Origin: a bacterium
GTDB taxonomy: Bacteria; UBP14; UBA6098; JAFGQG01
Assembly (NCBI GenBank): GCA_016935765.1
Contig: JAFGQG010000057.1
Location: forward strand, 7,704 to 71,703
DNA: 64,000 nucleotides
Direction of reading: 5' to 3'
In this document: positions 3,863-36,996 of the stretch, in pieces
Numbering within the stretch: the stretch's first letter is position 1
How the letters are laid out: each line of letters starts with the position of its first letter
Translations under genes and position numbers: made by a program
The notes under the pieces: model-generated
The model's input: the letters and a program-made list of their open reading frames with translations, nothing else
What the model was told of the DNA's origin: nothing
The model's database searches: none

Positions 3863-3963
3863 CAGCATTAACTTAAAAGATAACCACAAATAAATATTGC
3901 GCTCAAAGATGAAATAGTTATATTATCCGCTTGTTAAAATAAGGAAGTATAACAGGAGTAAAT

Positions 3964-8068: not shown

Positions 8069-8096
8069 AATTTCTATGTTCTGTCAACAATAAATG

Positions 8097-15118: not shown

Positions 15119-15208
15119 AGATGAGACGTTACTTATCCTTCTTGCGCAGTACCGACCATATTGATTTAAAATTTATGTGGATTAGATTTCCAACTGCATT
15201 TTCTTGGT

Positions 15209-17503: not shown

Positions 17504-17703
17504 AAATTCTCCCTTTTTTTAAATTCATTCTATAATTGGATTTTTTCCGGTTGGAAAGAGTAATCCCTTTATTACAAAAATAATTATTAACTCAAAAGCC
17601 TGTTCAAAGAGTAAAACCGGCTTTCAGATTCATGATTTAAAAAATAATATCATCGAGTCTAAAGCTTAGATATTCGCATACTGAACGATTAAGGGTACTC
17701 GCC

Positions 17704-18891: not shown

Positions 18892-18979
18892 GACTTACTC
18901 CCTTATCTTTTAATTGTTCGTTCCATAGGTAATTTTTTCAGATTAGATAATTAATACATTATTACCTATATGTCAAAGG

Positions 18980-19729
18980 TTAATAGACTTCGGAACTTGT
19001 TTTTCCCTCTTCTAATACTTTTTTTACCTCTAAAAGCTGGTTTCTTCCCGCTTGTTTTATGCCCTCGGATGGATAATCCCTGTCCAATGAATAAATCTGA
19101 ACCATCGCTGGTTTTATTCGAAATACCTTCTCTAACCATTCCTCAACATTTTTTGGGGTGAGGTTTCCCTTAATACCGTCCGTAAAAAGCGCTTGAATAG
19201 TCACATTCTCCATTTGAACCAGAGCCTCCACGATTTGTTCGAGATTTACACCCTTACATGGTTTGTTGTATATAGATAGCATATCTTCGTTTCCGGCATC
19301 CAGCTTCATGATCCTGAGGTCTAATTGAGCGAGCGACTCCTGTATATGCGGTTCATGAATACGGGACGAATTTGATAGAATCGCGGTACTTGAATCAGGG
19401 GAGTGCTTATCCCGCAATTTTACCAGCCCTTCAACGATTTCAGCGAATCGCGGGTGCAGTGTTGGCTCCCCATTTCCCGAAAAAGTGAGGTACGATGGAG
19501 TGGATTTCAAATTAGTTAAAGCGGTTTCTATCGATCGAAGCACTTCATCAACGTCGGGAAACGCGGCATTTTTCATTTTGGTAAAATCAGTCCAGCCATA
19601 TTGACAGTAAAGGCAATTGAACGTGCATACCTTCTCCGTTGTGGACAGCAGGTTTATGCCTAAAGAGCTTCCCAGTCTGCGAGACCGAACAGGACCGTAA
19701 ATTATTCCTTTCTGTAATTCGAGTAACAT
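18980..19729 (-). CDS. Radical SAM enzyme (COG0731-like)
   Basis: IYGPVRSRRLGSSLGINLL followed by the CTFNCLYCQYG CxxxCxxC cluster motif. It lies 8 nt downstream of the MocR-like gene and 88 nt upstream of the aminotransferase. Confidence 0.8.
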   Translation of the reverse strand: MLLELQKGIIYGPVRSRRLGSSLGINLLSTTEKVCTFNCLYCQYGWTDFTKMKNAAFPDVDEVLRSIETALTNLKSTPSYLTFSGNGEPTLHPRFAEIVEGLVKLRDKHSPDSSTAILSNSSRIHEPHIQESLAQLDLRIMKLDAGNEDMLSIYNKPCKGVNLEQIVEALVQMENVTIQALFTDGIKGNLTPKNVEEWLEKVFRIKPAMVQIYSLDRDYPSEGIKQAGRNQLLEVKKVLEEGKTSSEVY

Positions 19730-19736
19730 ACCTCAC

Positions 19737-21212
19737 CTATTTGTAGATCTTTTCCATAGTTTTAGCTATTCTCTGTACTCCTGTCTTGATTTCATCTTCG
19801 TCGAGGGACGCGATAGAGAGTCTGTAGTACGGGTCTTTAGGGCGAGTAGGGAAGTAGAACCTGCCCGGTACGACCAGCACGCCGTTTTTTAAAAGCAGGT
19901 CATGTACCCGCTCTTCCTTGAGAGGACAATTTTTTAAGTGAAGCCATATCAGGTATCCCCCGGTAGGTTCGGTCCAGGAGACATTTTCAACTGTAATATA
20001 ATCCTTCATAGCTTTTAGCGCGGTCTGCATTCTTTTCCGGAAGATACGGTGCATCCTTTTTACGTGAAGTTCATAGTGACCCTTTTCGCAGAATTCTGCG
20101 AGGGCTGCCTGCAGGGGCATGTTCGAGGATAAGTCTGAAACCTTCCTGATAGCGACAAGTCTTTTGATACACTCCTTTTCCGCAGCTATCCACCCAACTC
20201 GGATACCCGGAAACAGCACCTTGGAGAAGGTCCCCAAATAGATGACTATCTGCTTTTTGTCCATCGATTTTAACGGAAGCGGTACCTTCCCGAAATATTT
20301 CATTTCCTCCTCAAAGGCGTCCTCCACGATCGGGAGTTTGTGTTCTTCGCAGAGAGCCAGTAGTTCCTCCCTGTGAGCCTGGTTGGTGGATATTCCTGTT
20401 GGATTATGGAAGTTCGGCATAGTGTAGAGAAACGAAGCTTTTTCTTTTTCCAGGGTTTTCCGTAAATAAGCGAGGTCCAGTCCTTCCTCCCTCATAGGAA
20501 TTGGGAGAAGTTGAGAGCGGTAAAACTGCATTAATGGTATTACGATAGCATAAGTGGGGGATTCAATAAGAACCTTGTTCCCAGGCTCGATAAGCAGCTT
20601 GAGAATGGTTTCCAACCCGTGTTGAGCGCCATTGGTTATCATGATCTCGTCAGCGGCAACCTCGATACTGTGTATCTGCAATCTCTTGGCGATGGCTTCC
20701 CTCAGCGGTCTGTAGCCCTGCGCGTCACCGTAAGTCAGGAGTCTTGCGCCGTCATCTACGAGCACACCATTCAGGCACTTACGGAAATCATCCACCGGGA
20801 AGATGCGGGGATCAAGATCCAGCATTGCAAGGTTAATTGTGTCCGGCGACGTGGTTTTTTCTTTAGTTGCCTCGTCTATGAATTTCAGCATGTCATCTAC
20901 CAGGGGGGTGCAGATTTCATTCCAGGGAATTATACCCTCTTGCGCCCTTTTCTCTAGGGTGGCGAGCTCTTCCCTCTCGCGTACGATAGAATATGACCCC
21001 GGTCGGCTGTCTATGTAACCAAAAGCCCAAAGTTCTTCGTAAGCCTTATATACTGTTGAGCGGTGAACACCCAGGTGCACCGCCATATCCCGGGAGGAGG
21101 GCAGCTTGTCTCCAGGCTTGAGTACTCCTTGCTCGATCAACTCCTTAATCCGCTCGAAGACTTGCTTGAATAGAGGAATTTCACTTCTTTTATTTACTTT
21201 CAATATCAACAT
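19737..21212 (-). CDS. MocR/GabR-family transcriptional regulator (GntR HTH fused to an aminotransferase-like domain)
   Basis: N-terminal winged HTH (KLPSSRDMAVHLGVHRSTVYKAYEEL) and a C-terminal fold-type I PLP domain with GTFSKVLFPGIRVGW. Confidence 0.85.
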   Translation of the reverse strand: MLILKVNKRSEIPLFKQVFERIKELIEQGVLKPGDKLPSSRDMAVHLGVHRSTVYKAYEELWAFGYIDSRPGSYSIVREREELATLEKRAQEGIIPWNEICTPLVDDMLKFIDEATKEKTTSPDTINLAMLDLDPRIFPVDDFRKCLNGVLVDDGARLLTYGDAQGYRPLREAIAKRLQIHSIEVAADEIMITNGAQHGLETILKLLIEPGNKVLIESPTYAIVIPLMQFYRSQLLPIPMREEGLDLAYLRKTLEKEKASFLYTMPNFHNPTGISTNQAHREELLALCEEHKLPIVEDAFEEEMKYFGKVPLPLKSMDKKQIVIYLGTFSKVLFPGIRVGWIAAEKECIKRLVAIRKVSDLSSNMPLQAALAEFCEKGHYELHVKRMHRIFRKRMQTALKAMKDYITVENVSWTEPTGGYLIWLHLKNCPLKEERVHDLLLKNGVLVVPGRFYFPTRPKDPYYRLSIASLDEDEIKTGVQRIAKTMEKIYK

Positions 21213-21426
21213 TTTTACTATCCTCGATGGATCTTTTCAAAAATCTACACCCCAAATTATGACACAATTGGTTGTTCGTCAACTACCAATCACAATCTAT
21301 TTTAAGCATACCAATCTTAAAATAAGCCCTAATTCAATCCTATAAATAAATGGCTGAATACAGCAGAATTCCGAAGCTGCTAAGGTAACAACAGAAAGCG
21401 AGACAAGTTTTCATTATCTTACTAAC

Positions 21427-21783
21427 CTACTTGTCTTTTTCCGATTCGGTCATGAGTTCTTCGATGCTTTTTGATTCTTCCCCTTTTTCTTCCAGGAGTT
21501 TCAAAGTGCGGTTGTATTCATCCTTGACATCCTGACAGAAACTCTCAATTTCTTTTGCTATTTTCCGACTATCACCAGTATGAACTTTCAACATCCTCAG
21601 TAACGACTCATAACACTTGTTTGAGGTGTATCTACTAAGTGTATATCGAGCAACAAAAGCCTTACAGACTGCACAACGGCAGTACACTTTTGTAGGTTCA
21701 CCGTTATTAAGATAGAATATATTTTTAAGGTCTGTGGAACCACATTCAGGGCAATGTTCATAACGGACTTTTTCCATAATCAT
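21427..21783 (-). CDS. Small zinc-ribbon protein, hypothetical
   Basis: CPECGS...CRCAVC four-Cys ribbon and an acidic Lys/Glu-rich tail. It lies 33 nt downstream of the transporter gene. Confidence 0.5.
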   Translation of the reverse strand: MIMEKVRYEHCPECGSTDLKNIFYLNNGEPTKVYCRCAVCKAFVARYTLSRYTSNKCYESLLRMLKVHTGDSRKIAKEIESFCQDVKDEYNRTLKLLEEKGEESKSIEELMTESEKDK

Positions 21784-21816
21784 CCTCCTTAATTGTATGT
21801 AAATAGATTTATTCTC

Positions 21817-23142
21817 TTAATGAAAGAATATTTTTATTACTGCATAATTTAAAATGATTGCTACAACAGCAATAATCAAACCTGCTCTACGCAGGTACTT
21901 AGAATTTATCATACCTGAACTATAAGCAATGGCATTCGGTGGAGTGGAAACAGGAAGGCTCATAGCACAGGAAGCCATTAATGCGATCATGAGCGTAAGC
22001 GAGAAAACATTAACTCCAACTGCAATTGCCAGTGGAATCAATATATTAGTTGCTGCTGTATTACTCATAAAAGTGGACATAACAATAGATATTAATCCGA
22101 TTATAAGTATTAGGACAGAAATAGACATTGATTTAAATCTGAGCATATCCATTAACCAAGTGGATAAGCCACTTGATTGCATTGCTATACCCAAAGCAAT
22201 ACCACCTGACATGAGAACCAGAACATCCCATCCAATATTTTTAAAGTCATCAACATTCAGGATTCCTGAAGCCATAAATACCATGGGTGGAATAAGTGCT
22301 ATCATAGCTGAAGGAATTTTGTGCAAAGTTGTTGTTAACCATAGCAATACTGTAAGTATTACAGTTCCTAAAATTAGATAATGTTTATTTTTTAATACAG
22401 TTTTTTCCAGTTTAACTTCTATTTGTTTTATTTGTGGGGGGAATAAAACCAGCAGCAACCACCATATAAATATAGTGAGAACTAAAGCTATTGGCATCCC
22501 CCACGTAACCCATTTTAAAAATGAGATATCAATACCTGCGTTAGCCAAGGACTGAATAGCAATAGCATTCGGTGGGGTTCCAATAGGAGTTCCTATACCC
22601 CCAACGTTCGCAGCGAATGGAATACCCAAAATTAGAGCAATACTGAAAGGATCCTCTTTAAAATCTCTAACCACGGGCAAAATAGCAGCTACCATCAATG
22701 TAGTTGTAGCTGTATTTGACATCCACATTGATAAGAATGCAGTAGTAAGCATAATACCACCCAAGACCGAGCGTGGAGAATTACCTATTTTATTCAGTAT
22801 TGATCTTGCAATTACAGTATCAAGTTTATATTTCTGAAGAGCTGTCGCAAGGAAAAATCCCCCAGCGAACAATACTATTGTTGGGTTCGCAAAGGCAGCC
22901 AGGAAATGAGAATATTTAACTCCTTCAGTAACCGGGGGAATTAAGAAAGCTAGCATTGCTACTACTATTCCACCAGTGGCAGAAATTGGAATTACTTCAG
23001 TAGTCCAGCATAAAATTGCAAAAACAAACACCGCAAGCGTTCTCTGTCCAGAAGAGCTTAAATCCTTTATGGGTATGAATATAAATAAAGCTGATACGAA
23101 AATTAATATGATAAAAATTATCGTGTTTTTACGGTTTATCAT
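21817..23142 (-). CDS. DASS/SLC13-family (divalent anion:Na+ symporter-like) transporter
   Basis: Polytopic membrane protein with the duplicated SNTATT / SNTAAT hairpin signature motifs (MSNTATTTLM, MSNTAATNIL) and GTPPNAIA. Confidence 0.8.
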   Translation of the reverse strand: MINRKNTIIFIILIFVSALFIFIPIKDLSSSGQRTLAVFVFAILCWTTEVIPISATGGIVVAMLAFLIPPVTEGVKYSHFLAAFANPTIVLFAGGFFLATALQKYKLDTVIARSILNKIGNSPRSVLGGIMLTTAFLSMWMSNTATTTLMVAAILPVVRDFKEDPFSIALILGIPFAANVGGIGTPIGTPPNAIAIQSLANAGIDISFLKWVTWGMPIALVLTIFIWWLLLVLFPPQIKQIEVKLEKTVLKNKHYLILGTVILTVLLWLTTTLHKIPSAMIALIPPMVFMASGILNVDDFKNIGWDVLVLMSGGIALGIAMQSSGLSTWLMDMLRFKSMSISVLILIIGLISIVMSTFMSNTAATNILIPLAIAVGVNVFSLTLMIALMASCAMSLPVSTPPNAIAYSSGMINSKYLRRAGLIIAVVAIILNYAVIKIFFH

Positions 23143-23266
23143 AATACCTTCTCAATATATAGAAAAATCAAATATGTATGGAGGTTTCCATGAGTCAACT
23201 TTTTTATTTTAGTATTTTCAAAGAAAACAATAAAACTATCTACACACTAAAACCCTATTTTATTTT

Positions 23267-23803
23267 CAGGCAGCAGTTGATGCAATTCCCGCTACTCTGG
23301 CAGACATTTATGTCATCGAGGTTCAAGATGACAGTACTTATAATGAAGGGATAAATATTTTTAAAGAGAATACCCATCCCCCTCTCTTTTATTCGACTAC
23401 GCCTGACAGCGAGGATTTACACCTGTTGTCTGAATATGGAAGATGGAACCCTGTAACCGAAATATGGGAGAATGACTCCGTATCTTCACCCTGTATCGAC
23501 ATGGGATTCGGAGGACCGGTAAATGAACCTTTCCCCAATGGCGGGATCATAAACCAGGGCGCTTATGGAAATACAGCGGAAGCTTCCAGGTCAGGATATG
23601 GCGATACAAATATAGTTGCTATAAATATAGAGAACACTGACTGTAACTTCGAGGTTTCCTATCGTGGAGAAACGGTAGTATCAGCCGATTCGCAGGAGAT
23701 AATAATCGAGAACATCGGGACTTTACCTAATAATTATAATATTATTCTACCTTTTATTATCCAGAATGCTTTTTGCTTAATAATATTGACTAAATTGTAT
23801 TGA
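23267..23803 (+). pseudogene. Collapsed remnant of the downstream giant repeat gene (N-terminal and C-terminal ends fused, no start or signal peptide)
   Basis: The frame is open from 23234 with no ATG/GTG/TTG before 23426. QAAVDAIPATLADIYVIEVQDDSTY matches aa ~48-72 of the giant protein. It then jumps to PPLFYSTTPDSEDLHLLSEYGRWNP...SPCIDMGFGGPVNEPFPNGGIINQGAYGNTAEASRSGYGDTNIVAINIENTDCNFEVSYRGETVVSADSQEIIIENIGTLP, which matches the last repeat plus the C-terminal tail of the giant protein. Confidence 0.55.
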
Positions 23804-23871
23804 ACAATTATTTTCAATTTAAGCTAAAAAAATAAATTAAGATATGTAAAAATACATAGAAAAGAGGGAAA

Positions 23872-26800
23872 ATGATCTTTAAAAGCGAAATTCGTGTATT
23901 TCTATCGTTATCATTTTTAGTCTCCATCCTGTCATTCGCTATTCTTAATGCATCCCCTACCACGATACCAACTTATATAATCAAAAAGGATGGTACGGGA
24001 AGCTTCACCACTATTCAAGCAGCAGTAGATGCACTCCCTACAGTTCTGGCAGGTAATTATGTTATCGAGGTTCAGGACGATAGCACATATTATGAACAGG
24101 TGGATATTCGTAAGGATAACAACAATGATATTTATTCACTAACCATTCGGGCAGGGGATGGTTTTCAACCTACAATTAATGGCGATGATTATGGGTTCTA
24201 CATAAAACCCGACTCAACCAGCAATCTAAAAAATGTAACCATTAGCGGTTTTAATATTACTTCCTGCAACATTAATGGTTTTTTTGCCACCCGTAACGGT
24301 GCTGATGGTGAGGTTTTGAATCTTACGATCACAAACTGTATCATTCATGGAACTGCCTCCGAAGGTATTAAACTGGAATACGCTGATGATTTTCTAATGC
24401 GAAATAGTATTTTATACGATGCGGGTGGAGATTATGGGGTACACTTTAACCACTGTGATGGTAATCCCCGGTTCATAAATAACACCGTATATACATTAAG
24501 CACTACATATTCCCTTTACCAGGTTTATGGCAGCCTTACTTTAATGAACAACATCATCTGCAATACCAGTGATGATCAATACGATTATGGTTTTCGTATG
24601 TTGAGTGGTACTACTTATTCATACAACAATTATTTCTGTAGTAAATATTCTTTCGTTAATGGATCATATAATGCATTAGGTCGTGGTGACCGCGAAGCCG
24701 ACCTTGATGATGACCCTCCACTTTTTTACTCAACCGCCCCGGACAGCGAGGATTTTCATTTAAAGTCCGAGTATGGGCGATGGGAGCCAGAGGCGAAGGG
24801 CTGGCAAATTGATGCGACCACTTCTCCATGTATCGACATGGGTCTGGGTGACCCTATTGATGAGGTTGCTCCCAACGGAAACATCATCAACCAGGGCGCT
24901 TATGGTGGAACTGACCAGGCGTCAAAATCAGGTCCCGCGAGAGTATATGTCACAAAGGGCTCCGGCGCATTTGGGAACTTCGGCGCTTATGCAATGATAA
25001 ATGGCGCAGTTGCTGCTATACCTGACACTCTCGATACCAGCTACACAGTAACTGTATGCTCCGATGAACCCTATAGGGAAGAAGTAAAAGTGTTTAAACA
25101 CAATCCCTCCGATAGCGGTTATTCCCTTACAATCGAGGCATCTGATACCAATAACCCGGTGATCGAAGCAGAAGAAAATGGGTTTTACCTTAAACCTATC
25201 AATAGTACTGATGACATGTCAAACGTCACTATCGATGGTTTCGAGATCGCGCCTTGCCACAGAAGCGAGTCTATCACCAGTAGAAGTATATTGGCTGAGA
25301 ATAACGGAGCTGGGATCGAGGTTATAAACCTCACTGTCCAAAATTGTATTATCCATGGTTCCAATAATGAAGGTATCAAACTAGAATACGCAGATGATTT
25401 CCTGGTGCGAAATAACGCTGTTTATGACGCAGGAGGCGATTATGGAATACATTTTCATCAATGTGATGGTAATTCCCGATTTATCAATAACACCGTATAT
25501 ACTTATAGCACTATTAACTCTGTTTACCAGGCTTACGGCTACCTCACATTAATGAACAATATCATCTGCAACACCAGCGATGATCAATATGATTATGGTT
25601 TTCGTATGTCGAGTGGTTTTACTTACTCATGCAACAATTATTTCTGTAGTAAATATTCCTTGTCGAACGGATCAGATAACAACCTGGGTTTCGGCGACCG
25701 TGAAGCTGACCTTGATGATGACCCTCCGCTTTTCTATTCCACGACTCCAGGGAGTGAAGACTTCCATTTAATGTCCGAATATGGGCGCTGGGATTCCGAG
25801 GCGAAGGGGTGGCAAAATGACGGGGTTACTTCACCTTGTATAGACATGGGTTTGGGTGAACCTGTCGATGAGTTTGCTCCTAGCGGAAACATAATCAACC
25901 AGGGCGCTTATGGCGGAACGAACCAAGCGTCAAAATCCGGACCAACGAGAGTGTATGTAACTAAAGGCTCCGGAGCGTTCGGGAACCTCGGCGCTTACAC
26001 CCAGATAAGCGCTGCGGTCAATGCCATACCTGATACTCTAGATACCTCATACACAGTCACTGTCTGCTCAAATGGTCCGTTTAAACAAGAAGTTTATATA
26101 ATAAAACACAATCCACCTGATAGCGGTTATACTCTGACGATAGAGGCATCAGATACGAATAAGCCGGTTATTGAAGCTGAAAAACGCGGGTTTTACCTCA
26201 AACCCTACAATGATACAGCTGATCTGGCAAATATCACAATCGATGGCTTCGAGATAAGCCCCTGTCATAGGAGCACTTCTATTACCAGGAGGGGCATATT
26301 TGCTGAGAAAAACACTGATTGGATAGGAGTTATTAACCTCACAATTAAAAATTGTATTATTCATGGTACCAATAATGATGGTATTATATTAGAATACGCT
26401 GATGATTTCATGATGCAAAACAATATCATTTACGATACAGGTAGCAATTATGGGATTCACTTGTTTGTTTGTCATGGTAGCCCCGAATTTATTAATAACA
26501 CCGTTTACACCAACAGCATAAGTGCCGCTGTTTACTCGAACGGTGGCTCCCTTACCTTGAGGAACAACATTATTTGCAACTTGAACACCGGTCAATACTC
26601 TTATGGTTTCAACTATTCCTCTACTACCCTCCAAACATCCTACACCTACTTTTGCAGTAAGTATGCGCGTTCAAACGGCTCTAATGCTGTATTAGGTCGG
26701 TGTGACCGCGAAGCTGACCTTGATGATGATCCACCACTTTTCTATTCAACTACTCCGGGTAACGAAGATTTCCATTTAAAATCGGAGTATGGACGTTGGA

Positions 26801-29800
26801 ATCCGGCAACTACAAGCTGGGAGTTGGATGCTGTTACTTCACCCTGTATAGACATGGGTTTTAGAGCTCCGGTGAACGAACCATTACCCAACGGGGGGGT
26901 TATCAACCAGGGTGGATTCGGGGGTACGGAACAGGCATCAAAATCGGATTCCGGAAGGGTGTATGTTACAATAGGATCGGGAGTGTTTGGAAATTACGGT
27001 ATCTACACAACAATAAATGGCGCAATTGCAGCTATACCAGATTCCTTGGACAGCAGCTACACCGTTACCGTTTGCTCCGATGGACCCTACCGTGAAGAGA
27101 TTGATGTGTTAAAACTAAATCCTTCCGAAAACGGTTATTCTCTCACAATCGAGGCTTCTGACACTAATAATCCTGTAATAGAAGCTGAAATATATGGCTT
27201 TTACCTTAAACCATACAGCAGTAGCAGTGACCTGGCAAATGTAACTATCGACGGTTTCGAGATTAAACCTTGCCAAAGAAGCGCTTCCGTTACAAGCAGG
27301 GGCATACTAGCTCAAAAAGATAGCGACGGTATCGAGGTAATAAACCTTACTATTCAAAATTGTGTTATTCATGGTATCAGTAACGAAGGAATAAGACTCG
27401 AGTATTCCGATGATTATCTTATTAGAAACTGCCTTGTATATAATTCGGGAACCGATTATGCGGTATATTTGACTTATTGTGAAGGCGATCCAATATTTAT
27501 CAATAATACTGTATATTCAGGTAATTCATTTTGTGCCGTTTATAAGCATTATGGCTCTCTAAATCTAATGAACAATATTATTTGCAATACCAGCGATGAT
27601 TTATATGATTATGGTTTTAGAATAGCAGGCAACATTCCACAATCTTCAAACAACTATTTCTGCGCTAAGTATGCGTTAGATCATGGTTCGGACATTGCAT
27701 TGGGTTGTGGCGATCGTGAGGCTGACCTCGACGATGACCCGCCGCTTTTCTATTCTATTACTCCGGACAGCGAGGATTTTCATTTAATGTCCCAGTATGG
27801 GCGCTGGAATCCGGCAACCATAAGCTGGGAATATGATGCTGTCACTTCACCATGCCTCGATATGGGATTTGGCGCGCCAGTGAACGAACCGTTACCCAAT
27901 GGGGGTATAATCAACCAGGGCTTCTATGGCGGTACAGACCAGGCATCAAAATCTGGATCAGCTCGAGTATATGTAACTAAGGGCTCCGGCGCCTTCGGGA
28001 ATTTCGGCGCATACACCCAGATCAGCGGAGCTGTCAATGCAATTCCGGACTCTCTCGACAGCAACTATACCATAACCGTATGTTCCGATGGACCATATCG
28101 CGAGGAAGTGAATATATTTAAACTCAATCCTGCTTCGAACGGATATGACCTGGTCATAGAAGCCTCGGACACAAACAAACCGGTAATTGAAGCTGAAAAA
28201 TACGGTTTTTACCTTAAGCCTTATAATAATACCAATGACCTTGCCAATGTAATAATTTCAGGTTTGGAAATTAAACCCTGTCATCGAAATCCCGCTATTA
28301 CTAACAAAGGTATCTTCACCGAAAGGAACGATGCTGAAAATCATGTTTTAAACCTGACCGTTGAAAATTGCGTTATTCATGGCATTACAAATGAAGGGAT
28401 AAGGTTGGAATATGCAGACGGATTCCTTGTGCAAAATTGCCTCGTCTATAACTGTGGAACTGCATACGGTGTATATTTTTACTATTGCGATGATGATCCG
28501 CATTTTATGAATAGCACCGTTTATACTAACAGCAACCAGTATTCAGTGATCAGCTATTACTCTGATCTCATTTTGCGTAATAATATCATTTGTAACACGA
28601 GTGAAATTGCCGGTGATTATGGTTTTTACGTTTCTGGTGTTACCGTAGAATCATCATACAATTATTACTGCAGTAAATATTCATTGAGCAATGGTTCATA
28701 CGTGGGTATTGGTCGTGGCGACAGGGAAGCTCACCTTGATGATGACCCTCCGCTTTTCTACTCCACCACTCCGGACAGCGAGGACTTTCATTTGATATCG
28801 GAGTATGGAAGGTGGAATCCAATCACCGAAACCTGGGAACTTGATGCTGTTACTTCCCCCTGTATTGACATGGGTTTTGGCGCGCCGCTAAACGAGCCCT
28901 TACCCAATGGCGGTATTATTAACCAGGGATTCTATGGAGGGACTGACCAGGCGTCGAAATCCGGACCTGCAAGAGTATATGTAACCAGGGGGGCCGGGGC
29001 ATTTGGGAATTACGGCGCATACACCCAGATCAACGGCGCAGTCAACGCCATACCCGATTCCCTCGATACCAGCTATGCCGTAAGCGTGTGCTCCGATGGA
29101 CCATTCCGGCAGGAAGTAAACGTGTTCAAATTAAATCCAGCATCTAACGGATATAACCTTATTATAGAAGCATCGGATACTAATAAACCGGTGATTGAAG
29201 CCGAAGCTCATGGTTTTTACCTTCAACCTTATAATAATACCAATGATCTGGCTAATGTCACCATAGACGGATTTGAGATAGCTCCCTGCCAAAGGGATGC
29301 TTCTATAACCAGCAGAGGTATATTTACACAGCGAAATGATAGTGATAATGAAGTCATAAACCTTACTATTGAAAATTGTATTATCCACGGAAGCAGATAT
29401 GAAGGGATAAAGCTCGAGTACTCAGATAACTTCCAGATTAAAAATTCCCTCATATATAGCTGCGGGACTGATTACGGCGTATTCTTCTACTATTGTGATG
29501 GAGACTGTCGATTTGTTAATAACACCGTATATACTTATAGTACAATTAACACTCTTTGCCAAAACTATGGTAACTTAACATTATTGAATAATATTATTTG
29601 CAACACAAGCGATAATGCTGGGGATTATGGTTTTAACAATCCTAGCGGTATTACGAGCTCATCGTATAATTATTTCTGCAGCAAGTATTCATTGAGCAGC
29701 GCTTCACTTGTTGCTCTTGGGCGCGGCGACAAGGAAGCTTACCTTGAAGAAGACCCGCCACTTTTCTATTCCACTACACCGGACAGTGAGGATTTTCATT

Positions 29801-32448
29801 TGATGTCGGAGTATGGAAGGTGGAATCCGATCAGCGAAAGCTGGGAATTCGACGCAGCATCTTCCCCTTGTATCGACATGGGATTTGGAGGACCTGTTTT
29901 GGAACCATTTCCCAATGGAGGCATCATTAACCAGGGCTGTTATGGCGGCACTGACCAGGCATCGAAATCCGGACCGGCAAGGATATATGTAACAAAGGGC
30001 TCCGGGGCGTTCGGGAACTACGGCACATTTACCCAGATCAGTGGAGCGGTCAACGCTATCCCGGACTCTCTCGACAGCAGCTATACTGTAACTGTGTGCT
30101 CTGGTGGACCATTTCAGCAAGAAGTCAAGGTGTTCAAATTAAATCCAGCCTCTAACGGATATAGCCTTATTATAGAAGCATCGGATACTAATAAACCGGT
30201 GATTGAAGCCGAAGCTTATGGTTTTTACTTGAAATCTTATAAAAACACTAACGACCTCGCGAATGTCACTATCGATGGTTTCGAGATAGTACCCTGTCAA
30301 AGAGACCCTAACATAACCAGCAGAGGTATATTTACACAGCGAAATGATAGTGATAATGAAGTCATAAACCTTACCATTAGAAACTGTATTATTCATGGTA
30401 CTATTAATGAAGGGATAAAACTCGAGTACTCAGATGCCTTCGTCGCTCAGAGTAATTTAGTATATAACTGCGGCACGGATTACGGTATATATTTCTACTA
30501 CTGTGACGGAGACTGCAAATTCGCCAATAACACCGTATATACTAATAGCGCTATCAACTCTCTTTGTCAATTCTATGGTACTTTAACCATATGGAATAAT
30601 ATAATTTGCAATTGCAGTGATTTTGATAACGATTATGCCTTTAACAACCCGGGCGGCGCTACTACTACCTCGTATAATTACTACTGCTGCAAATATAGCC
30701 TCGAAGATGCGCTCGGTTATCCTTCTACCGGGCGGGGTGACCGGGAAGCCGACCTTGATGATGACCCGCCACTGTTTTATTCAACCACACCTGGTAGTGA
30801 GGATTTCCATTTGATGTCCGAGTACGGACGTTGGGATCCGGAAGCAAAGGGCTGGGAAATTGATGTTGTTACTTCACCATGCATTGACATGGGTTTTGGA
30901 GCACCAATGAATGAACCATTGCCTAATGGGAACATCATTAACCAGGGATTCTATGGCGGTACCGACCAGGCATCGAAATCCGGTCCATCTAGGGTATATG
31001 TAACCAGGGACTCTGGCGCTTTCGGGAACTTCGGCGCATACACTCAAATAAGCGGTGCAGTCAACGCCATCCAGGATTCCCTAGACAGCAGCTACACCGT
31101 AACCGTTTGCTCTGATGGACCTTACAGGGAAGAAGTAAAAGTGTTCAAATTAAATCCCGCTTCCAATGGATATAATCTCGTTATAGAGGCTTCGGATACA
31201 AATAAACCGGTGATCGAAGCGGAGGTTTACGGTTTTTACTTGAAATCTTATAAGAACACCAACGACCTCGCGAATGTCACTATCGATGGGTTCGAGATAG
31301 TACCATGTCAGAGAAGCGCTGATATTTCAAGTATGGGTATCTTTACACAGGAAAACGGGGATGAAAATGAAGTGATAAACCTGACTCTTGAAAATTGTGT
31401 TACTCATGGAATAAAAAACGAGGGCATTAAACTCGAATATGCAGATGACTTCCTTGTCCAAAATTGTCTGGTCTATGACTGTGGAGACAACTACGCTGTT
31501 ACCTTTTATGGCTGTGATGGAGATTGCCGGTTTATCAATAATACTGTATATTCAGACAATTCCATTTACACAGTAAATCAAGGTTACGGCAATTTAAATT
31601 TACGTAACAATATTATCTGTAATACTAGTGATATCATCGGAGATTATGGTTTCAGAGTATCAAGTGGTGTAGCAACTCCATCATTTAATTATTTTTGCAG
31701 CGCTTATAGTGCTGATCAGGGTTCTTACGGTGCTTTAGGCACCGGGGATACTGAAGTTGATCTCCACCTTGCCCCGCCTCTGTTTGTGAATACAGCAACT
31801 GATTCGGAAAATTTCCATTTGCAGTCGATGTTCGGGCATTGGGATACCGAAACCGGGGTCTGGCTTTTTGACACGCTCACTTCTCCATGCATCGATGCCG
31901 GAGATCCGGCAGACCCGTACGCAAACGAAACCGAAGATAATGGAAACAGGATTAACCAGGGCGCTTACGGCAATACGGTTGAAGCCTCGAAATCCGGATT
32001 CGGTGACACGAATATCGTAGCCATATTGATAGAAACCACGGACTGCAACTTTGAGATAACTTATAGAGGCCAAACAGTTGTATCCGCTGATTCACAGAAG
32101 ATCGAGATAATAAACATCGGCACTCTACCCATAGACATCGGGATGTTCTGCGACAGTGTACCCGGTTATGCGCTCGCGGACACTTATGAAATCGGCTATT
32201 ATGGTCTGTGGGGCTTACTCAATGATTCAGATTTTGCACCTGCCAAACACGATTTTACAAATAACCACCTTTTCTCCTACATCTTGCAATGGGCGGATTC
32301 AACCATCTTCGGACCGGGTGGCAGGAACATCCCGATCGCCGGGGATAACCAGGAGAACCTGTGGTTCCGATTCGATGCGCCGTATTATTACGCACCGCAC
32401 AACATTGAGATAAAGGTTACCGTCCAGGCGAGGGAGCACCTGCCGTAG
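23872..32448 (+). CDS. Giant (2858 aa) secreted protein of eight tandem ~335-aa parallel beta-helix cassettes, each ending in a choice-of-anchor-Q-like SPCID segment
   Basis: GGGAAA upstream and a signal peptide (MIFKSEIRVFLSLSFLVSILSFAILNA). Each unit is VYVTKGSGAFGN...AIPDSLD.SYTVTVCSDGPYREEV, then N-ladder PbH1 coils (NLTIxNCIIHG, INNTVYT, ICNTSD), then GDREADLDDDPPLFYSTTPDSEDFHL.SEYGRWNP...SPCIDMGFG...NQGAYGGTDQASKSG. The last unit carries the canonical SPCIDAGDPADP. Confidence 0.85.
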   Translation: MIFKSEIRVFLSLSFLVSILSFAILNASPTTIPTYIIKKDGTGSFTTIQAAVDALPTVLAGNYVIEVQDDSTYYEQVDIRKDNNNDIYSLTIRAGDGFQPTINGDDYGFYIKPDSTSNLKNVTISGFNITSCNINGFFATRNGADGEVLNLTITNCIIHGTASEGIKLEYADDFLMRNSILYDAGGDYGVHFNHCDGNPRFINNTVYTLSTTYSLYQVYGSLTLMNNIICNTSDDQYDYGFRMLSGTTYSYNNYFCSKYSFVNGSYNALGRGDREADLDDDPPLFYSTAPDSEDFHLKSEYGRWEPEAKGWQIDATTSPCIDMGLGDPIDEVAPNGNIINQGAYGGTDQASKSGPARVYVTKGSGAFGNFGAYAMINGAVAAIPDTLDTSYTVTVCSDEPYREEVKVFKHNPSDSGYSLTIEASDTNNPVIEAEENGFYLKPINSTDDMSNVTIDGFEIAPCHRSESITSRSILAENNGAGIEVINLTVQNCIIHGSNNEGIKLEYADDFLVRNNAVYDAGGDYGIHFHQCDGNSRFINNTVYTYSTINSVYQAYGYLTLMNNIICNTSDDQYDYGFRMSSGFTYSCNNYFCSKYSLSNGSDNNLGFGDREADLDDDPPLFYSTTPGSEDFHLMSEYGRWDSEAKGWQNDGVTSPCIDMGLGEPVDEFAPSGNIINQGAYGGTNQASKSGPTRVYVTKGSGAFGNLGAYTQISAAVNAIPDTLDTSYTVTVCSNGPFKQEVYIIKHNPPDSGYTLTIEASDTNKPVIEAEKRGFYLKPYNDTADLANITIDGFEISPCHRSTSITRRGIFAEKNTDWIGVINLTIKNCIIHGTNNDGIILEYADDFMMQNNIIYDTGSNYGIHLFVCHGSPEFINNTVYTNSISAAVYSNGGSLTLRNNIICNLNTGQYSYGFNYSSTTLQTSYTYFCSKYARSNGSNAVLGRCDREADLDDDPPLFYSTTPGNEDFHLKSEYGRWNPATTSWELDAVTSPCIDMGFRAPVNEPLPNGGVINQGGFGGTEQASKSDSGRVYVTIGSGVFGNYGIYTTINGAIAAIPDSLDSSYTVTVCSDGPYREEIDVLKLNPSENGYSLTIEASDTNNPVIEAEIYGFYLKPYSSSSDLANVTIDGFEIKPCQRSASVTSRGILAQKDSDGIEVINLTIQNCVIHGISNEGIRLEYSDDYLIRNCLVYNSGTDYAVYLTYCEGDPIFINNTVYSGNSFCAVYKHYGSLNLMNNIICNTSDDLYDYGFRIAGNIPQSSNNYFCAKYALDHGSDIALGCGDREADLDDDPPLFYSITPDSEDFHLMSQYGRWNPATISWEYDAVTSPCLDMGFGAPVNEPLPNGGIINQGFYGGTDQASKSGSARVYVTKGSGAFGNFGAYTQISGAVNAIPDSLDSNYTITVCSDGPYREEVNIFKLNPASNGYDLVIEASDTNKPVIEAEKYGFYLKPYNNTNDLANVIISGLEIKPCHRNPAITNKGIFTERNDAENHVLNLTVENCVIHGITNEGIRLEYADGFLVQNCLVYNCGTAYGVYFYYCDDDPHFMNSTVYTNSNQYSVISYYSDLILRNNIICNTSEIAGDYGFYVSGVTVESSYNYYCSKYSLSNGSYVGIGRGDREAHLDDDPPLFYSTTPDSEDFHLISEYGRWNPITETWELDAVTSPCIDMGFGAPLNEPLPNGGIINQGFYGGTDQASKSGPARVYVTRGAGAFGNYGAYTQINGAVNAIPDSLDTSYAVSVCSDGPFRQEVNVFKLNPASNGYNLIIEASDTNKPVIEAEAHGFYLQPYNNTNDLANVTIDGFEIAPCQRDASITSRGIFTQRNDSDNEVINLTIENCIIHGSRYEGIKLEYSDNFQIKNSLIYSCGTDYGVFFYYCDGDCRFVNNTVYTYSTINTLCQNYGNLTLLNNIICNTSDNAGDYGFNNPSGITSSSYNYFCSKYSLSSASLVALGRGDKEAYLEEDPPLFYSTTPDSEDFHLMSEYGRWNPISESWEFDAASSPCIDMGFGGPVLEPFPNGGIINQGCYGGTDQASKSGPARIYVTKGSGAFGNYGTFTQISGAVNAIPDSLDSSYTVTVCSGGPFQQEVKVFKLNPASNGYSLIIEASDTNKPVIEAEAYGFYLKSYKNTNDLANVTIDGFEIVPCQRDPNITSRGIFTQRNDSDNEVINLTIRNCIIHGTINEGIKLEYSDAFVAQSNLVYNCGTDYGIYFYYCDGDCKFANNTVYTNSAINSLCQFYGTLTIWNNIICNCSDFDNDYAFNNPGGATTTSYNYYCCKYSLEDALGYPSTGRGDREADLDDDPPLFYSTTPGSEDFHLMSEYGRWDPEAKGWEIDVVTSPCIDMGFGAPMNEPLPNGNIINQGFYGGTDQASKSGPSRVYVTRDSGAFGNFGAYTQISGAVNAIQDSLDSSYTVTVCSDGPYREEVKVFKLNPASNGYNLVIEASDTNKPVIEAEVYGFYLKSYKNTNDLANVTIDGFEIVPCQRSADISSMGIFTQENGDENEVINLTLENCVTHGIKNEGIKLEYADDFLVQNCLVYDCGDNYAVTFYGCDGDCRFINNTVYSDNSIYTVNQGYGNLNLRNNIICNTSDIIGDYGFRVSSGVATPSFNYFCSAYSADQGSYGALGTGDTEVDLHLAPPLFVNTATDSENFHLQSMFGHWDTETGVWLFDTLTSPCIDAGDPADPYANETEDNGNRINQGAYGNTVEASKSGFGDTNIVAILIETTDCNFEITYRGQTVVSADSQKIEIINIGTLPIDIGMFCDSVPGYALADTYEIGYYGLWGLLNDSDFAPAKHDFTNNHLFSYILQWADSTIFGPGGRNIPIAGDNQENLWFRFDAPYYYAPHNIEIKVTVQAREHLP
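23940..31995 (+). repeat. Eight in-frame tandem repeats, period ~1008 bp (units begin near 23940, 24940, 25948, 26947, 27961, 28969, 29974 and 30985)
   Basis: The VYVT(K/R/I)G codon block recurs at ~1-kb spacing. Units 6 and 7 share identical 40-nt stretches, for example acacagcgaaatgatagtgataatgaagtcataaacctta at 29326 and 30334. The first and last units are the most diverged. Confidence 0.85.
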
Positions 32449-32763: not shown

Positions 32764-33138
32764 ATGACCACATTTAATATTGAAAAAGCCAGGCAGAAAA
32801 TAAGGGATAAACAACGCCAGGAGAAAGAAAAGAGGCAAAAACTGCTTAAAAAAGCTTTGGCTGACTTTGATAACATTATTAAAATGCTGATAGAGAAATA
32901 CAATCCAAAAAGAATTTACCAATGGGGTTCTTTATTGAACACAAGTAACTTTTCTGAAATTTCGGATATCGACATTGCTGTTGAAGGGATTAAATCCGCA
33001 GAGGAATATTTCAATATGCTGGGTGATGCGATGGAACTTACCAATTTCCCGGTGCACTTAGAGGAGCTTGAAAAACTCAAATCAATTTATGCTGACACGA
33101 TAAAAGAGGAGGGGAAACTGATCTATGAGCGAAAATAG
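32764..33138 (+). CDS. Minimal nucleotidyltransferase (MNT, Pol-beta fold), antitoxin-like partner of the HEPN protein
   Basis: GS...DxD nucleotidyltransferase motif (WGSLLNTSNFSEISDIDIAVEG). It overlaps the next gene by 14 nt. Confidence 0.75.
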   Translation: MTTFNIEKARQKIRDKQRQEKEKRQKLLKKALADFDNIIKMLIEKYNPKRIYQWGSLLNTSNFSEISDIDIAVEGIKSAEEYFNMLGDAMELTNFPVHLEELEKLKSIYADTIKEEGKLIYERK

Positions 33139-33604
33139 AGAAATCGCAGATTTACGCAAAGAGATAAACAAAACTGTTAGTGTTCTAAGCAATATAGACG
33201 CTTTTTATAAAGATTTCCTGGAGAAAACGTTACCCTTACTCGGTAAGAACCAAACATCGGCTATTGTTCAAGCGGAAATATTTACAGATTTTTACACCTG
33301 TTTAGAGAGTCTTTTTTTAAAGATATCCGCTTTCTTTGAGAACGAGTTGAAGAAGAATGGCTGGCATAAGGATCTCTTACATAAAATGACTCTTGAGATT
33401 CGGGAGACCAGGATTCCGGTAATCTCCGATAAAACCTATTCCATACTGCTCGAGTTTCTCAAATTCAGGCATTTCAAGCGCTATTATCATGAGTTTGATT
33501 ACGACTGGGATAAATTAGAATATCTCCAGAAGAAATATATTCAGGTTAATGAGTTATTTAAAAATGACGTGGAGAGGTTCAGCAATTTTCTTGCAGAATT
33601 GTAA
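33125..33604 (+). CDS. HEPN-domain / HI0074-like nucleotidyltransferase substrate-binding protein (toxin-like partner)
   Basis: 159-aa helical protein with an R-x6-H motif (FRHFKRYYH) near the C-terminus. Translationally coupled to the MNT gene. Confidence 0.6.
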   Translation: MSENREIADLRKEINKTVSVLSNIDAFYKDFLEKTLPLLGKNQTSAIVQAEIFTDFYTCLESLFLKISAFFENELKKNGWHKDLLHKMTLEIRETRIPVISDKTYSILLEFLKFRHFKRYYHEFDYDWDKLEYLQKKYIQVNELFKNDVERFSNFLAEL

Positions 33605-33652: not shown

Positions 33653-34930
33653 ATGGGAAAAGCGTTTTTAACAATTTTGTTTCTGATTCTATTATCCACT
33701 ATTGTCAGTGGTTTAGAACTTGTTTCCGAGACCCCAACGGGTAATATCGGGGCAACCATTATTAGAGTGGAGCATAATTCCGCTATGCTTTTCGAACCCG
33801 ATACTTCCCGGGATACTTTAACCGTCAGGTTCTTTAATTGCTCTGACCCTCACACTCCGATGAGGGGTGACGATTTCGAGGTTCCTTCCATTATCAGCGG
33901 AAATTTATATTCCTTCCACGCGCTGGACACAAATGATTCCCTATTAGCAATATATAGAGATTGGACTAATTTTGACCTTTATAGCCATATTAGTGATTCT
34001 ATTACTCACGTTAATAGCTTTAGTGCTTATGGTATATATCGGTATGGTCCTTACATTGTGCTGGTCGACTCCTTTGTAGCAGTTTTGCGATATTACCGTA
34101 ATGACGCAATTGATTTTTATAATTACAATGATTTATCTTCTATCTATTTTGTTGATAGCATACCAGGTCTTAACATGATGAGTATGCCCGATATTGAAGA
34201 TGGTTTAGTATGCCATTCAAGCGGAATGTCCACCTGGATTTATAGTATTTCCAGCGAAAGTTTCACAGAATTAATAGGATATTATACGTGTGGTACCGAT
34301 TATCATTCTTGTTTCCTTGATATCGATAGAAATTTTGTCTTTACCGAAGGAAGGGCAATTGGATACATTAGTGGCGATACAATCGTTTCTTCTGCTTGGA
34401 CCTATCCAGGCTTACATGAAGATTTTAGAGCGCCATTTGAGATATGGGACGATTTTATCATAAAAGCTGAAGGTTATGATGCTGATAATCGTATAGATAT
34501 TGCCTACATATCCATCTGGTATCCCTTTCCCCTCTGGACATGGTTAGATACGGCAAAAGGGGGGATATTCGAGATCAAGGATTCGCTGCTCTTTACCTTC
34601 GGGCTTGATACATTGCGTATCTATAACCTGAATTCATTAACGGCTATTGAACAGATCGAGCATACTCCCTCTGAAATTGAAGTTTCCATCCATCCCAATC
34701 CTTTCAATTCCTCAACAACTATCCAATTCACGCTTAAACAAAACGCTGGCGTTGAAGCTGCCATCTACAACCTCCTCGGTGAAAGGGTTTGCGAATTATT
34801 TAATGATAATCTACCTGCAGGCACCCACACCCTCTACTGGAATGCGGAAGGTTTCCCATCTGGGATTTACTTCTGCAAACTGAAAGCAGGCAATCATCTG
34901 GAAGTAAAAAGATTGCTCCTCATGAGATAG
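33653..34930 (+). CDS. Secreted hypothetical protein, T9SS cargo (CTD subtype ending KRLLLMR)
   Basis: Signal peptide MGKAFLTILFLILLSTIVSG. C-terminus IHPNPFNSSTTIQFTLKQNAGVEAAIYNLLGERVCELFNDNLPAGTHTLYWNAEGFPSGIYFCKLKAGNHLEVKRLLLMR. Confidence 0.7.
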   Translation: MGKAFLTILFLILLSTIVSGLELVSETPTGNIGATIIRVEHNSAMLFEPDTSRDTLTVRFFNCSDPHTPMRGDDFEVPSIISGNLYSFHALDTNDSLLAIYRDWTNFDLYSHISDSITHVNSFSAYGIYRYGPYIVLVDSFVAVLRYYRNDAIDFYNYNDLSSIYFVDSIPGLNMMSMPDIEDGLVCHSSGMSTWIYSISSESFTELIGYYTCGTDYHSCFLDIDRNFVFTEGRAIGYISGDTIVSSAWTYPGLHEDFRAPFEIWDDFIIKAEGYDADNRIDIAYISIWYPFPLWTWLDTAKGGIFEIKDSLLFTFGLDTLRIYNLNSLTAIEQIEHTPSEIEVSIHPNPFNSSTTIQFTLKQNAGVEAAIYNLLGERVCELFNDNLPAGTHTLYWNAEGFPSGIYFCKLKAGNHLEVKRLLLMR

Positions 34931-35090: not shown

Positions 35091-35327
35091 ATGCCTACTA
35101 TATTTAAAACAGGTCCTTATCGTTTCTTCTTCTACTCTGGAGATAAATATGAACCACCTCACATTCACGTTGAGCATGATGATAAAAAAGCCAAGTTTTG
35201 GCTCAATCCCGTAAGATTATGCAAGAGTATAGGATTTAACAGACAAGAACTTAACCACTTACAAAAGCTAATTGATGAGAGTGAAAACCAAATTTTGAGG
35301 AGTTGGGATGAGTACTTTAACGACTGA
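35091..35327 (+). CDS. DUF4160-domain protein
   Basis: MPTIFKTGPYRFFFYSGDKYEPPHIHVEHDDKKAKFWLNPV is the DUF4160 signature. It overlaps the next gene by 20 nt. Confidence 0.8.
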   Translation: MPTIFKTGPYRFFFYSGDKYEPPHIHVEHDDKKAKFWLNPVRLCKSIGFNRQELNHLQKLIDESENQILRSWDEYFND

Positions 35328-35610
35328 AAAAGAAATTACCAGAGCTTTGAAAATAAGTTTTACAGATGATTCATTGGTTGTCGAACTCGAAGATGGTAGA
35401 ACAGTTATGGTTCCAATAAGCTGGTTTCCAAGGCTTCAAGATGGTAATCAGAAAGAACGCTCTAATTGGCGGTTAATTGGCAGGGGCGAAGGTATCCATT
35501 GGCCAGACCTTGATGAAGACATAAGTGTCGATAATCTGCTTTCAGGCCAACCTTCCGGAGAAAGCCAGCGTTCACTCAAAAAATGGTTAGAATCCAGAAA
35601 AGGTAAATAA
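35308..35610 (+). CDS. DUF2442-domain protein
   Basis: ALKISFTDDSLVVELEDGRTVMVPISWFPRLQDGNQKERSNWRLIGRGEGIHWPDLDEDISVDNLL is the DUF2442 signature. It forms the conserved DUF4160/DUF2442 gene pair. Confidence 0.8.
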   Translation: MSTLTTEKEITRALKISFTDDSLVVELEDGRTVMVPISWFPRLQDGNQKERSNWRLIGRGEGIHWPDLDEDISVDNLLSGQPSGESQRSLKKWLESRKGK

Positions 35611-35664: not shown

Positions 35665-36594
35665 ATGGGAAAGAAGGAAGGGTGTTTAGATTTTTTTTGG
35701 GGGGCAAGTATTTTACTTTTCATTTTAAATAACTTTTTAGGTTTGAAACTCGAGCCTATACTGCATAGCGCTGAATGGCAGTTGTGGGATAAAGAATGCT
35801 TTAAGGTAGAGTTTATTAAAGCCCATCCATCAAACCCGGATTTAATATTTACTATTGGAGATTCTACCACATATCCTATTATAAACAGAAAGCTTTTTAT
35901 GAGTAATGATAAAGGATTGTCCTGGGTATGTATCGGTTCTGACGAGTTAGGAAACCAAGTATCCTGGATTGATATAGGTTATGACTCAGTGATCTACGCG
36001 GATGCAAATTGGTATGATTCTAGTAGAATAAAAAAGTCTTCTGATTTTGGTGAAACCTGGATTAATGCTGGTCTGTTTCCTGGGGGATCAGCAGATTTAT
36101 ATGGTCAAGTTAATCCTACAAATTCAGATACTCTTATCATTTCCACATGTGGTCTTTATTCATGTACAAGTATAATGACCCTTGATGGTGGCATTACTTG
36201 GGAACGTGTAAGTTGTGAATGTTGTGCAGTAACTTGTTATACACCGTGGCAAGATCTTTTTTTTATGGAGTGTGGTGGTCTAAGGTTTTTTCGAAACCAT
36301 GCATGTGGAACAGATTGGGATACCCTTTATACAGCATTTTATTTTTACGATTTTAAGTATGTAAAAAATTCTCCCTATCTTTTATATTCTATAGGTGGAT
36401 TGTTTGGATACTGGAGTGATTCAATTTTTATTTGGAAGAGCCACGATAATGGAAGTAATTGGAATAGAATAGCTTGTATATCATGCGATTTTATTGAAAT
36501 AAACCAAACTGACACATTGGACATTTTTGTGTCAGATGGGATAGATATTTTGAGATCCACAGATGGTGGAGATACATGGGTAATTCTCGATTAA
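35665..36594 (+). CDS. BNR/Asp-box repeat protein; the frame continues through a single TAA into a downstream T9SS CTD
   Basis: Five S-x-D-x-G-x-T/S-W boxes (SNDKGLSW, SSDFGETW, TLDGGITW, SHDNGSNW, STDGGDTW). The TAA at 36592-36594 is followed, in the same frame, by the 36595..36996 segment. Confidence 0.7.
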   Translation: MGKKEGCLDFFWGASILLFILNNFLGLKLEPILHSAEWQLWDKECFKVEFIKAHPSNPDLIFTIGDSTTYPIINRKLFMSNDKGLSWVCIGSDELGNQVSWIDIGYDSVIYADANWYDSSRIKKSSDFGETWINAGLFPGGSADLYGQVNPTNSDTLIISTCGLYSCTSIMTLDGGITWERVSCECCAVTCYTPWQDLFFMECGGLRFFRNHACGTDWDTLYTAFYFYDFKYVKNSPYLLYSIGGLFGYWSDSIFIWKSHDNGSNWNRIACISCDFIEINQTDTLDIFVSDGIDILRSTDGGDTWVILD

Positions 36595-36996
36595 GGTGCT
36601 GATTTATTCTCAACGCCATTAAATTGTTTAGAGATAAATTCGGATGGATCAGTCTTATTCGTTGGTGCCCCTAATGGATTGTTTAGATATGATCTAACTG
36701 ATACAAGCAGCATCATTGAGACAACAAATCCTATTTTAAGCCTAAATCTTTCCGTTTGGCCAAATCCCTTCAACTCCTGCACCAATATTAAATTCACACT
36801 TAAGGAAAGCTCTTCTGTAAAAACCTCCATTTACAACCTCATCGGTGAAAGGGTATGCGACCTGACCAACGATAAATTATCCGCAGGAATTCACACCCTT
36901 CAATGGAATGCGGAAGATCTCCCCTCCGGGGTCTATTTCTGCAAGCTTAAAGCCGGCAAACATCAGGAAGTGAAAAAATTGCTGTTGATGAGATAG
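36595..36996 (+). pseudogene. Detached T9SS type-A CTD segment, in frame with the upstream BNR gene after a TAA (the ORF caller reports 36679..36996 with a TTG start)
   Basis: Translation: GADLFSTPLNCLEINSDGSVLFVGAPNGLFRYDLTDTSSIIETTNPILSLNLSVWPNPFNSCTNIKFTLKESSSVKTSIYNLIGERVCDLTNDKLSAGIHTLQWNAEDLPSGVYFCKLKAGKHQEVKKLLLMR. It has no ATG of its own and is about 70% identical to the CTD of the 33653..34930 gene. Confidence 0.5.

Follow-up and report, generated by a model that had tools for sequence, protein, structure and literature searches.

What does a single 8.6-kb gene built almost wholly from eight copies of one unit encode, and is such an array a shifting repeat or a settled architecture? 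The question is raised by a 64,000-nucleotide stretch of contig JAFGQG010000057.1 (GenBank assembly GCA_016935765.1, positions 7,704 to 71,703, from a bacterium of the UBP14 lineage), hereafter called the window. The gene is a complete, uninterrupted open reading frame (ORF) at 23872-32448 on the + strand, and its 2858-residue product is identical to NCBI MBN2542149.1, annotated as ‘right-handed parallel beta-helix repeat-containing protein [bacterium]’. In the analysis below, the protein falls into a class of giant tandem beta-helix proteins that is known and widespread, as a member of its compact-cassette branch.

Layout and fold of the eight-cassette protein

Direct-repeat analysis resolved eight in-frame units whose starts lie 1008 nt apart in all seven successive steps but one, where the distance is 1011 nt, and a profile made from the units matched the protein eight times end to end (residues 34-356, 357-692, 693-1027, 1029-1364, 1365-1700, 1701-2036, 2037-2373 and 2374-2709). 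Tandem Repeats Finder gave no report; its longest period is 500 nt, so the 1008-nt period lies outside its detectable range. The ORF, the spacing and the profile matches therefore agree on the single gene of eight units put forward in a preliminary description of this DNA, and the motifs quoted there (NLTxxNCxIHG, NNTVYT, NNIICNTS and DFHL...SPCID...INQGxYGGT) are present in all eight. That scheme did not, however, separate out the 149-residue non-repeat domain that ends the protein. The parts of the gene are as follows.

23872-23955, + strand: signal-peptide-like N-terminus, residues 1-28 (MIFKSEIR / VFLSLSFLVSILSFAIL / NAS), read from the translation; no lipobox Cys
23971-24939, + strand: cassette U1, residues 34-356; without the GAFGN insert and a 6-residue loop
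24940-25947, + strand: cassette U2, residues 357-692; from direct repeats and unit profile
25948-26955, + strand: cassette U3, residues 693-1028; from direct repeats and unit profile
26956-27963, + strand: cassette U4, residues 1029-1364; from direct repeats and unit profile
27964-28971, + strand: cassette U5, residues 1365-1700; from direct repeats and unit profile
28972-29979, + strand: cassette U6, residues 1701-2036; the reference unit
29980-30990, + strand: cassette U7, residues 2037-2373 (337 residues); closest to U6
30991-31998, + strand: cassette U8, residues 2374-2709; the sole unit with the family-consensus tail form SPCIDAGDPADP
31999-32445, + strand: non-repeat C-terminal domain, residues 2710-2858 (149 residues); ends ...QAREHLP

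In the reference unit U6, the beta-helix core occupies residues 1 to ~260 and the tail module residues ~250-336 (nt 29722-29979). The mature protein would have a mass of ~310 kDa and an acidic isoelectric point of ~4.3, with 6-12 Cys per unit.

The beta-helix fold suggested for the units is borne out by family models. PF13229 (Beta_helix) scores 147 bits against a curated cut-off of 25.9 and covers eight stretches of the protein, and TIGR03804 scores 51.4 against 19.45. The predicted fold agrees: the coils of the right-handed beta-helix repeat at a regular period and carry an Asn ladder. The AlphaFold2 model of a single unit was mediocre, with a predicted local distance difference test (pLDDT) score of 66; a two-unit model was better in the cores, not in the tail. 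The best structural neighbours are polysaccharide lyase (PL) family PL31 and PL6 alginate lyases, an alginate epimerase/lyase, AlgE4, pectate lyases and capsule depolymerases. The beta-helix lyases, epimerases and phage tailspikes compared (PL31 6kfn, PL6 7dmk, AlgE4 2pyg, Pel9A 1ru4 and CBA120 TSP2) share only 8-19% sequence identity with the units and have neither the tail module nor the eightfold array, and no catalytic motif was recovered in the comparison with them. Across the Pfam and NCBIfam models, the protein matched no PL, glycoside hydrolase (GH) or carbohydrate esterase (CE) family beyond the generic Beta_helix/NosD. PF01095 (Pectinesterase, CE8) matched U1 only, at positions 3-86 of 298 and 27.2 bits against a cut-off of 27, leaving the central catalytic region unmatched; only the N-terminal ~90 residues of U1, its N-terminal cap and first coils, resemble this profile, at the profile start.

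The last ~85 residues are the most conserved part of each unit; two 20-residue windows in them average 80% pairwise identity, and at least 5,780 protein clusters share this tail. Eight such tails recur at 336-residue spacing in the tandem pattern D[FY]HL...SPxID...N.GxYGxT..AS, with the consensus GD.E..L...PPLF.....SEDFHL.S..GRW.....W..D..TSPCID.G....EP.PNG..INQG.YGGT.QASKS; an acidic segment, GDREADLDDDPP, was noted alongside their invariant D, E and N residues. Only the first third of the tail falls within a Pfam model. In tail-sharing relatives, namely single-cassette and Phycisphaerae proteins, the end of PF08480 (‘Disaggregatase related’, Disaggr_assoc, the model of the Methanosarcina disaggregatase-related proteins; profile positions ~144-194) spans the last coil up to ~D[FY]HL..GRW. 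The model does not reach the second half of the tail (SPCID...INQGAYGGT..ASKS), and disaggregatase activity cannot be deduced from the match. Neither the window protein nor its single units matched PF08480 at E<=1. A profile of 26 tails found nothing among Protein Data Bank (PDB) sequences at E<=10. The likeness to choice-of-anchor-Q tails that had been suggested did not hold: NF041518 does not match the whole protein at E<=1, and it weakly matches two of the 26 homologous tails (best E 0.004), neither from the window, which amounts at most to distant motif resemblance and not to membership.

At its N-terminus the protein displays what read as the n, h and c regions of a Sec signal peptide, in line with the preliminary description. 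Its other end is distinctive. No type IX secretion system (T9SS) C-terminal domain (CTD), whether PF18962 / TIGR04183 (type A) or TIGR04131 (type B), was found in the protein as a whole or in its final 149 residues, whereas four neighbours (2234-3862, 3964-5886, 6146-8068 and 33653-34930) carry Por_Secre_tail, confirming the contrast first noted. The local type-A CTDs end in ...KLKAG.H.EVK.LLLMR and the giant protein in ...VTVQAREHLP. The C-terminal 149 residues are 49% identical to the C-terminus of a four-cassette protein from a Guaymas Basin genome, which ends ...RAREHLP; the two share the blocks IDIGMFCDSV, GLWG.LND, FGPGGRNIP and LWFRFD and an identical AREHLP terminus. The domain had no Pfam, NCBIfam or PDB sequence match, a two-sequence profile search and a profile search of 72 loci (L001-L072) returned only the Guaymas protein, and tblastn against the window added no further homologue. 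Its sequence gives an impression of ASH / choice-of-anchor-D Ig-like domains, and it could serve as a signal of a new kind, for sorting or anchoring, in place of the T9SS CTD for very large cargo in this lineage. The tail module and this domain are the two truly uncharacterised elements of the protein, with no described counterpart, and both are good targets for structure determination and new family models.

An old array and its relatives

Pairwise identity between units is 51-76% at the protein level and 54-77% at the DNA level, considerably lower than the 70-90% first estimated. The closest pair is U6/U7 (76% protein, 77% DNA). U1 and U8 are farthest from the other units, and U8 is the only one with SPCIDAGDPADP, both as originally observed. 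Nei-Gojobori comparison between units gave proportions of synonymous differences (pS) of 0.56-0.89, which are saturated, and synonymous rates (dS) above 1 or not computable; the non-synonymous rates (dN) were 0.16-0.45, and dN/dS was 0.05-0.16 where computable. The unit duplications are thus old, and purifying selection has retained every copy. The longest identical run between two units is 62 nt (U6 29305-29366 / U7 30313-30374), and all other unit pairs share runs of 29 nt or less. The 62-nt identity falls in a segment that is otherwise variable among units, and may be a trace of the youngest duplication or a short gene-conversion event.

With so little uninterrupted identity, frequent homologous unequal recombination today is unlikely. 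The proposal that the protein could change length by unequal recombination therefore stands as history, in that cassette copy number has changed over evolutionary time, but is not supported as a description of a current switch. Neighbour-joining placed the window’s eight units in one clade and the four Guaymas units in another, so that array growth or homogenisation was separate in each lineage. Within the window clade the order is ladder-like: U1, U2, U3, U4, then U8 with U5-U7. These patterns are consistent with an array that grew by tandem duplication within the source lineage and is now stable. As eight old, individually conserved copies, it offers a clean natural case of a domain array that first grew and then stabilised, in contrast to a hypervariable repeat locus.

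Immediately before the giant gene lies a further member of the family, which the preliminary description had not noticed.

23267-23728 (open frame 23234-23803), + strand: decayed paralogue directly upstream of the giant gene; no start codon, no signal peptide

The relic, also picked up by the direct-repeat analysis (family D12), joins in frame a first-unit head (65% protein identity to U1), a unit tail of the internal-unit type (81% to U6) and, from the C-terminal domain, its first ~45 residues (81%). Its divergence from the intact gene is mostly synonymous (pS 0.6-0.9; ratio of non-synonymous to synonymous proportions, pN/pS, 0.13-0.31), which indicates a long-lived functional paralogue, relatively recently gutted by deletions. 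The relic shows directly that members of the family undergo deletion between parts of cassettes.

Two circumstances could raise the suspicion that misassembly made or inflated the eightfold array, or that the ORF is itself a decaying pseudogene: the window derives from a 77.8-kb metagenome-assembled contig, and a decayed paralogue adjoins the gene. Against this, the units differ at 23-46% of nucleotides, and with shared runs as short as those above an assembler would treat every unit as unique. The frame runs unbroken for 8.6 kb, the low dN/dS holds between its copies, and the composition of the gene matches that of the window (GC content 43.2% versus 42.7%). We regard an artefact as highly improbable. 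The same match in GC led us to drop horizontal acquisition of the gene.

When the eight-unit profile was run exhaustively with HMMER over 1.84 billion representative proteins, the search returned 5,780 clusters at E<=1e-3, 166 of them at E<=1e-30. It corrected an earlier word-indexed search with one unit, in which only the tail matched, in secreted beta-helix proteins of one cassette, many of which continue into dockerin-like sequence. That search missed the protein itself and its four-cassette relative, both in the collection, so its negatives are unreliable for this protein, and the idea that it has no close relatives was rejected. We analysed 154 sequences, the 150 best matches and four further cluster members. 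At least three tails occur in 132 of them, with up to 14 in one protein and a median tail-to-tail spacing of 452 residues. A coherent group of 5,400-6,400 residues has 11-14 cassettes with position-specific spacings conserved between clusters. In these ~6000-residue proteins (P0022-P0056) the spacings are conserved even between clusters less than 50% identical, and the penultimate is ~475-499 residues in nearly all; on these grounds the 13-cassette array is an old, stable orthologous architecture and not a variable repeat. Named members of the large group come from Kiritimatiellia, Verrucomicrobiota and Lentisphaerae (e.g. HMP74713.1, MCP5488193.1 and OGV42677.1), and a Phycisphaerae example has 2,999 residues and a dockerin.

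These giants of the Planctomycetes-Verrucomicrobia-Chlamydiae (PVC) type resemble the window protein in being secreted tandem beta-helix domains each closed by the same tail, and they are annotated or interpreted as carbohydrate-directed. They differ in cassette length (~450 residues, against 336 in the window protein) and in their C-terminal regions, and belong to a different superphylum. Their similarity to the window unit lies mostly in the last coils and tail; a profile of the helix core only (first 250 unit residues) left most of them unmatched at E<0.01. A published PVC-superphylum metagenome-assembled genome (MAG), Ca. Menyafoubacter, encodes a ~6000-residue secreted protein with ‘several tandem CASH domains’ and a ‘disaggregase region’, interpreted as extracellular and catabolic (PMC12057145); we group it with the tandem beta-helix giants by its published description. 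One 6007-residue, 13-cassette relative (JGI Ga0675942_0000388, gene at 6001-24024) has glycosyltransferase, aminotransferase and acetyltransferase genes as neighbours, a polysaccharide-biosynthesis cluster, and this context hints that the large PVC-type proteins act on the exopolysaccharide of their own cell. Since relatives with at least 11 cassettes and a published ~6000-residue case exist, giant tandem beta-helix proteins are a known kind. The gene had been called the most unusual in the window; the comparison does not support its uniqueness, as uncultured bacteria commonly have tandem arrays of this sort, including larger ones.

Homologues of the whole, compact cassette are few. The closest counterpart is RKZ30583.1 (DRQ36_05050) from the MAG ‘bacterium isolate B46_G16’ of the Guaymas Basin (QNEE01000056.1; loci L001, L002 and L004). 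Like the window protein it has compact cassettes (314-331 residues, 42-54% identical to the window units), the same tail, the same orphan C-terminal domain, a signal-like N-terminus and T9SS cargo next door. Unlike it, RKZ30583.1 has four cassettes rather than eight, two of them without one coil, and its units form their own clade, so that each lineage either expanded its array independently or homogenised its units. No synteny was found between the window and the Guaymas locus. Among other compact forms, one fragment (P0057) has at least two cassettes at 336-residue spacing, P0071 and P0072 have one each among other domains, and metagenome loci have from one to at least three. A scan with two unit-specific peptide patterns, over one genome each for 185,579 species, returned only the Guaymas MAG; the window’s own genome was not among the returned loci. 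Eight is the largest compact array seen. The window protein therefore represents a compact-cassette branch (336 residues per cassette, one to eight cassettes) from a T9SS-bearing lineage, within a class noted so far mainly in the PVC superphylum.

Binder, enzyme or structural protein

To weigh function we aligned 15 compact cassettes drawn from five proteins (the window’s eight, the Guaymas four and three others) and examined residue conservation. Helix-core positions that are invariant or at least 90% conserved hold only Ile, Ala, Leu, Tyr, Asn, Cys, Thr, Val, Gly and Pro, and the helix proper (positions 33-250) has no conserved Asp, Glu, Lys, Arg or His; D32, at least 90% conserved, lies in the N-terminal cap segment. 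All invariant polar residues are in the tail (H276, D294, D302, E311, N320 and Q321). The lyases, hydrolases and epimerases known to have this fold rely on charged residues that are conserved on the core, and a core devoid of them favours a binding or scaffold role. Judged from these sequence patterns, the most likely function, to which we give an even chance, would be that of a multivalent polysaccharide-binding fibre; catalysis by some cassettes is possible but less likely.

On this reading, the acidic protein would be exported by Sec to the extracellular space or cell surface as eight independently folded, individually capped right-handed parallel beta-helix domains (pectate-lyase-fold / CASH-type), arranged as beads on a string, with each helix closed and linked by its ~85-residue tail (DFHL..GRW..W..D..SPCID.G..EP.PNG..INQG.YGGT.QASKS). 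The fibre would tether the cell to, or hold, polymeric glycans or the glycan coat of another cell. Its eight long-diverged cassettes would provide avidity and possibly several specificities, and the lineage-specific C-terminal domain would anchor or target it in place of a T9SS CTD. The surface-located, polysaccharide-directed role suggested at the outset, as a giant adhesin or polysaccharide-acting fibre, is thus reasonable, at the level of a prediction. Several observations weigh against this picture. H139, E149, Y150 and D152 are invariant in the window’s eight cassettes and might form a subfamily-specific active site, and most of the structural neighbours are enzymes. The models give pLDDT below 50 for the tail and for the geometry between cassettes, and the beads-on-a-string arrangement is suggested by the cap helices and the predicted template modelling score. 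Export is proposed from a reading of the N-terminus only, and a 310-kDa protein would have to cross the outer membrane with no recognised T9SS CTD.

The first two of these points would suit a multi-catalytic depolymerase, in which several or all cassettes are active lyases, hydrolases or epimerases, like a disaggregatase or a phage depolymerase, and the array degrades extracellular matrix or a cell-wall glycan of algae or bacteria, either processively or with more than one specificity. Its best structural neighbours are indeed PL31, PL6, AlgE4, pectate lyases and capsule depolymerases, its tail-sharing relatives match PF08480, and every copy, with H139, E149 and D152 in each, is under strong purifying selection; the published tandem-CASH protein was also read as catabolic (PMC12057145). 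Yet no charged core residue stays conserved once the Guaymas four and the three other compact cassettes are added, and the coil bearing E149/D152 is missing from two of the Guaymas cassettes. Nor is there a PL, GH or CE match beyond the generic models, the Pectinesterase match being limited to the profile start and PF08480 unmatched in the window protein itself. We consider a depolymerase unlikely overall, albeit a serious competitor to a binding fibre. A non-glycan structural protein or protein-binding adhesin, whether a surface fibre, a sheath, an S-layer-like spacer or a binder in the manner of PfbA, Vag8 or chlamydial Pmp passengers, is less probable again: tail and fold tie the protein to CASH and disaggregatase-related carbohydrate-active or -binding proteins, at least one ~6000-residue relative is located in a glycosyltransferase cluster, and nothing specific points to protein ligands. 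Every invariant polar residue of the cassette sits in the tail, which makes the tail a candidate functional module. It is a rather improbable further option that the tail is a real ligand-binding, Ca-binding or cassette-joining module with the helices as spacers, together with the 149-residue domain as a new sorting or anchoring signal. A single 336-residue cassette would be a tractable construct for deciding whether these proteins bind or cut polysaccharides.

Neighbouring genes

The window has no rRNA, tRNA or Rfam match, and no match to PADLOC defence models. For ClpB, the best non-self match was 80% identical and likewise labelled ‘[bacterium]’, and the next ones, at ~75%, were spread across many phyla. 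A promoter scan upstream of the giant gene gave nothing above chance, and a terminator scan around it found none. A cluster of secreted proteins at 2234-15118 places the gene in a secretome-rich region. Three of these carry Por_Secre_tail (an FG-GAP/beta-propeller protein, an S15 X-Pro dipeptidyl peptidase and a 640-residue protein of unknown function), and the cluster also holds a 647-residue protein without a Pfam match and a 1469-residue protein with an IgGFc-binding-like domain.

Immediately 3′ of the giant gene, the overlapping ORFs 32764-33138 and 33125-33604 (+ strand) encode a nucleotidyltransferase (Polbeta / NTP_transf_2) and a HepT-like protein, and this pair is an MNT/HepT-type toxin-antitoxin module. 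Further on, 35665-36594 (+) encodes a 309-residue BNR/sortilin-like protein and 36679-36996 (+) is a separate short ORF with a T9SS-type C-terminal domain, whose end closely resembles that of 33653-34930 (…SGVYFCKLKAGKHQEVKKLLLMR versus …SGIYFCKLKAGNHLEVKRLLLMR); together, 35665-36996 has the look of one T9SS cargo gene that a frameshift or stop has divided. Two overlapping small ORFs at 35091-35327 and 35308-35610 (+; 78 and 100 residues), which lie between T9SS cargo genes, look like another small two-gene module.
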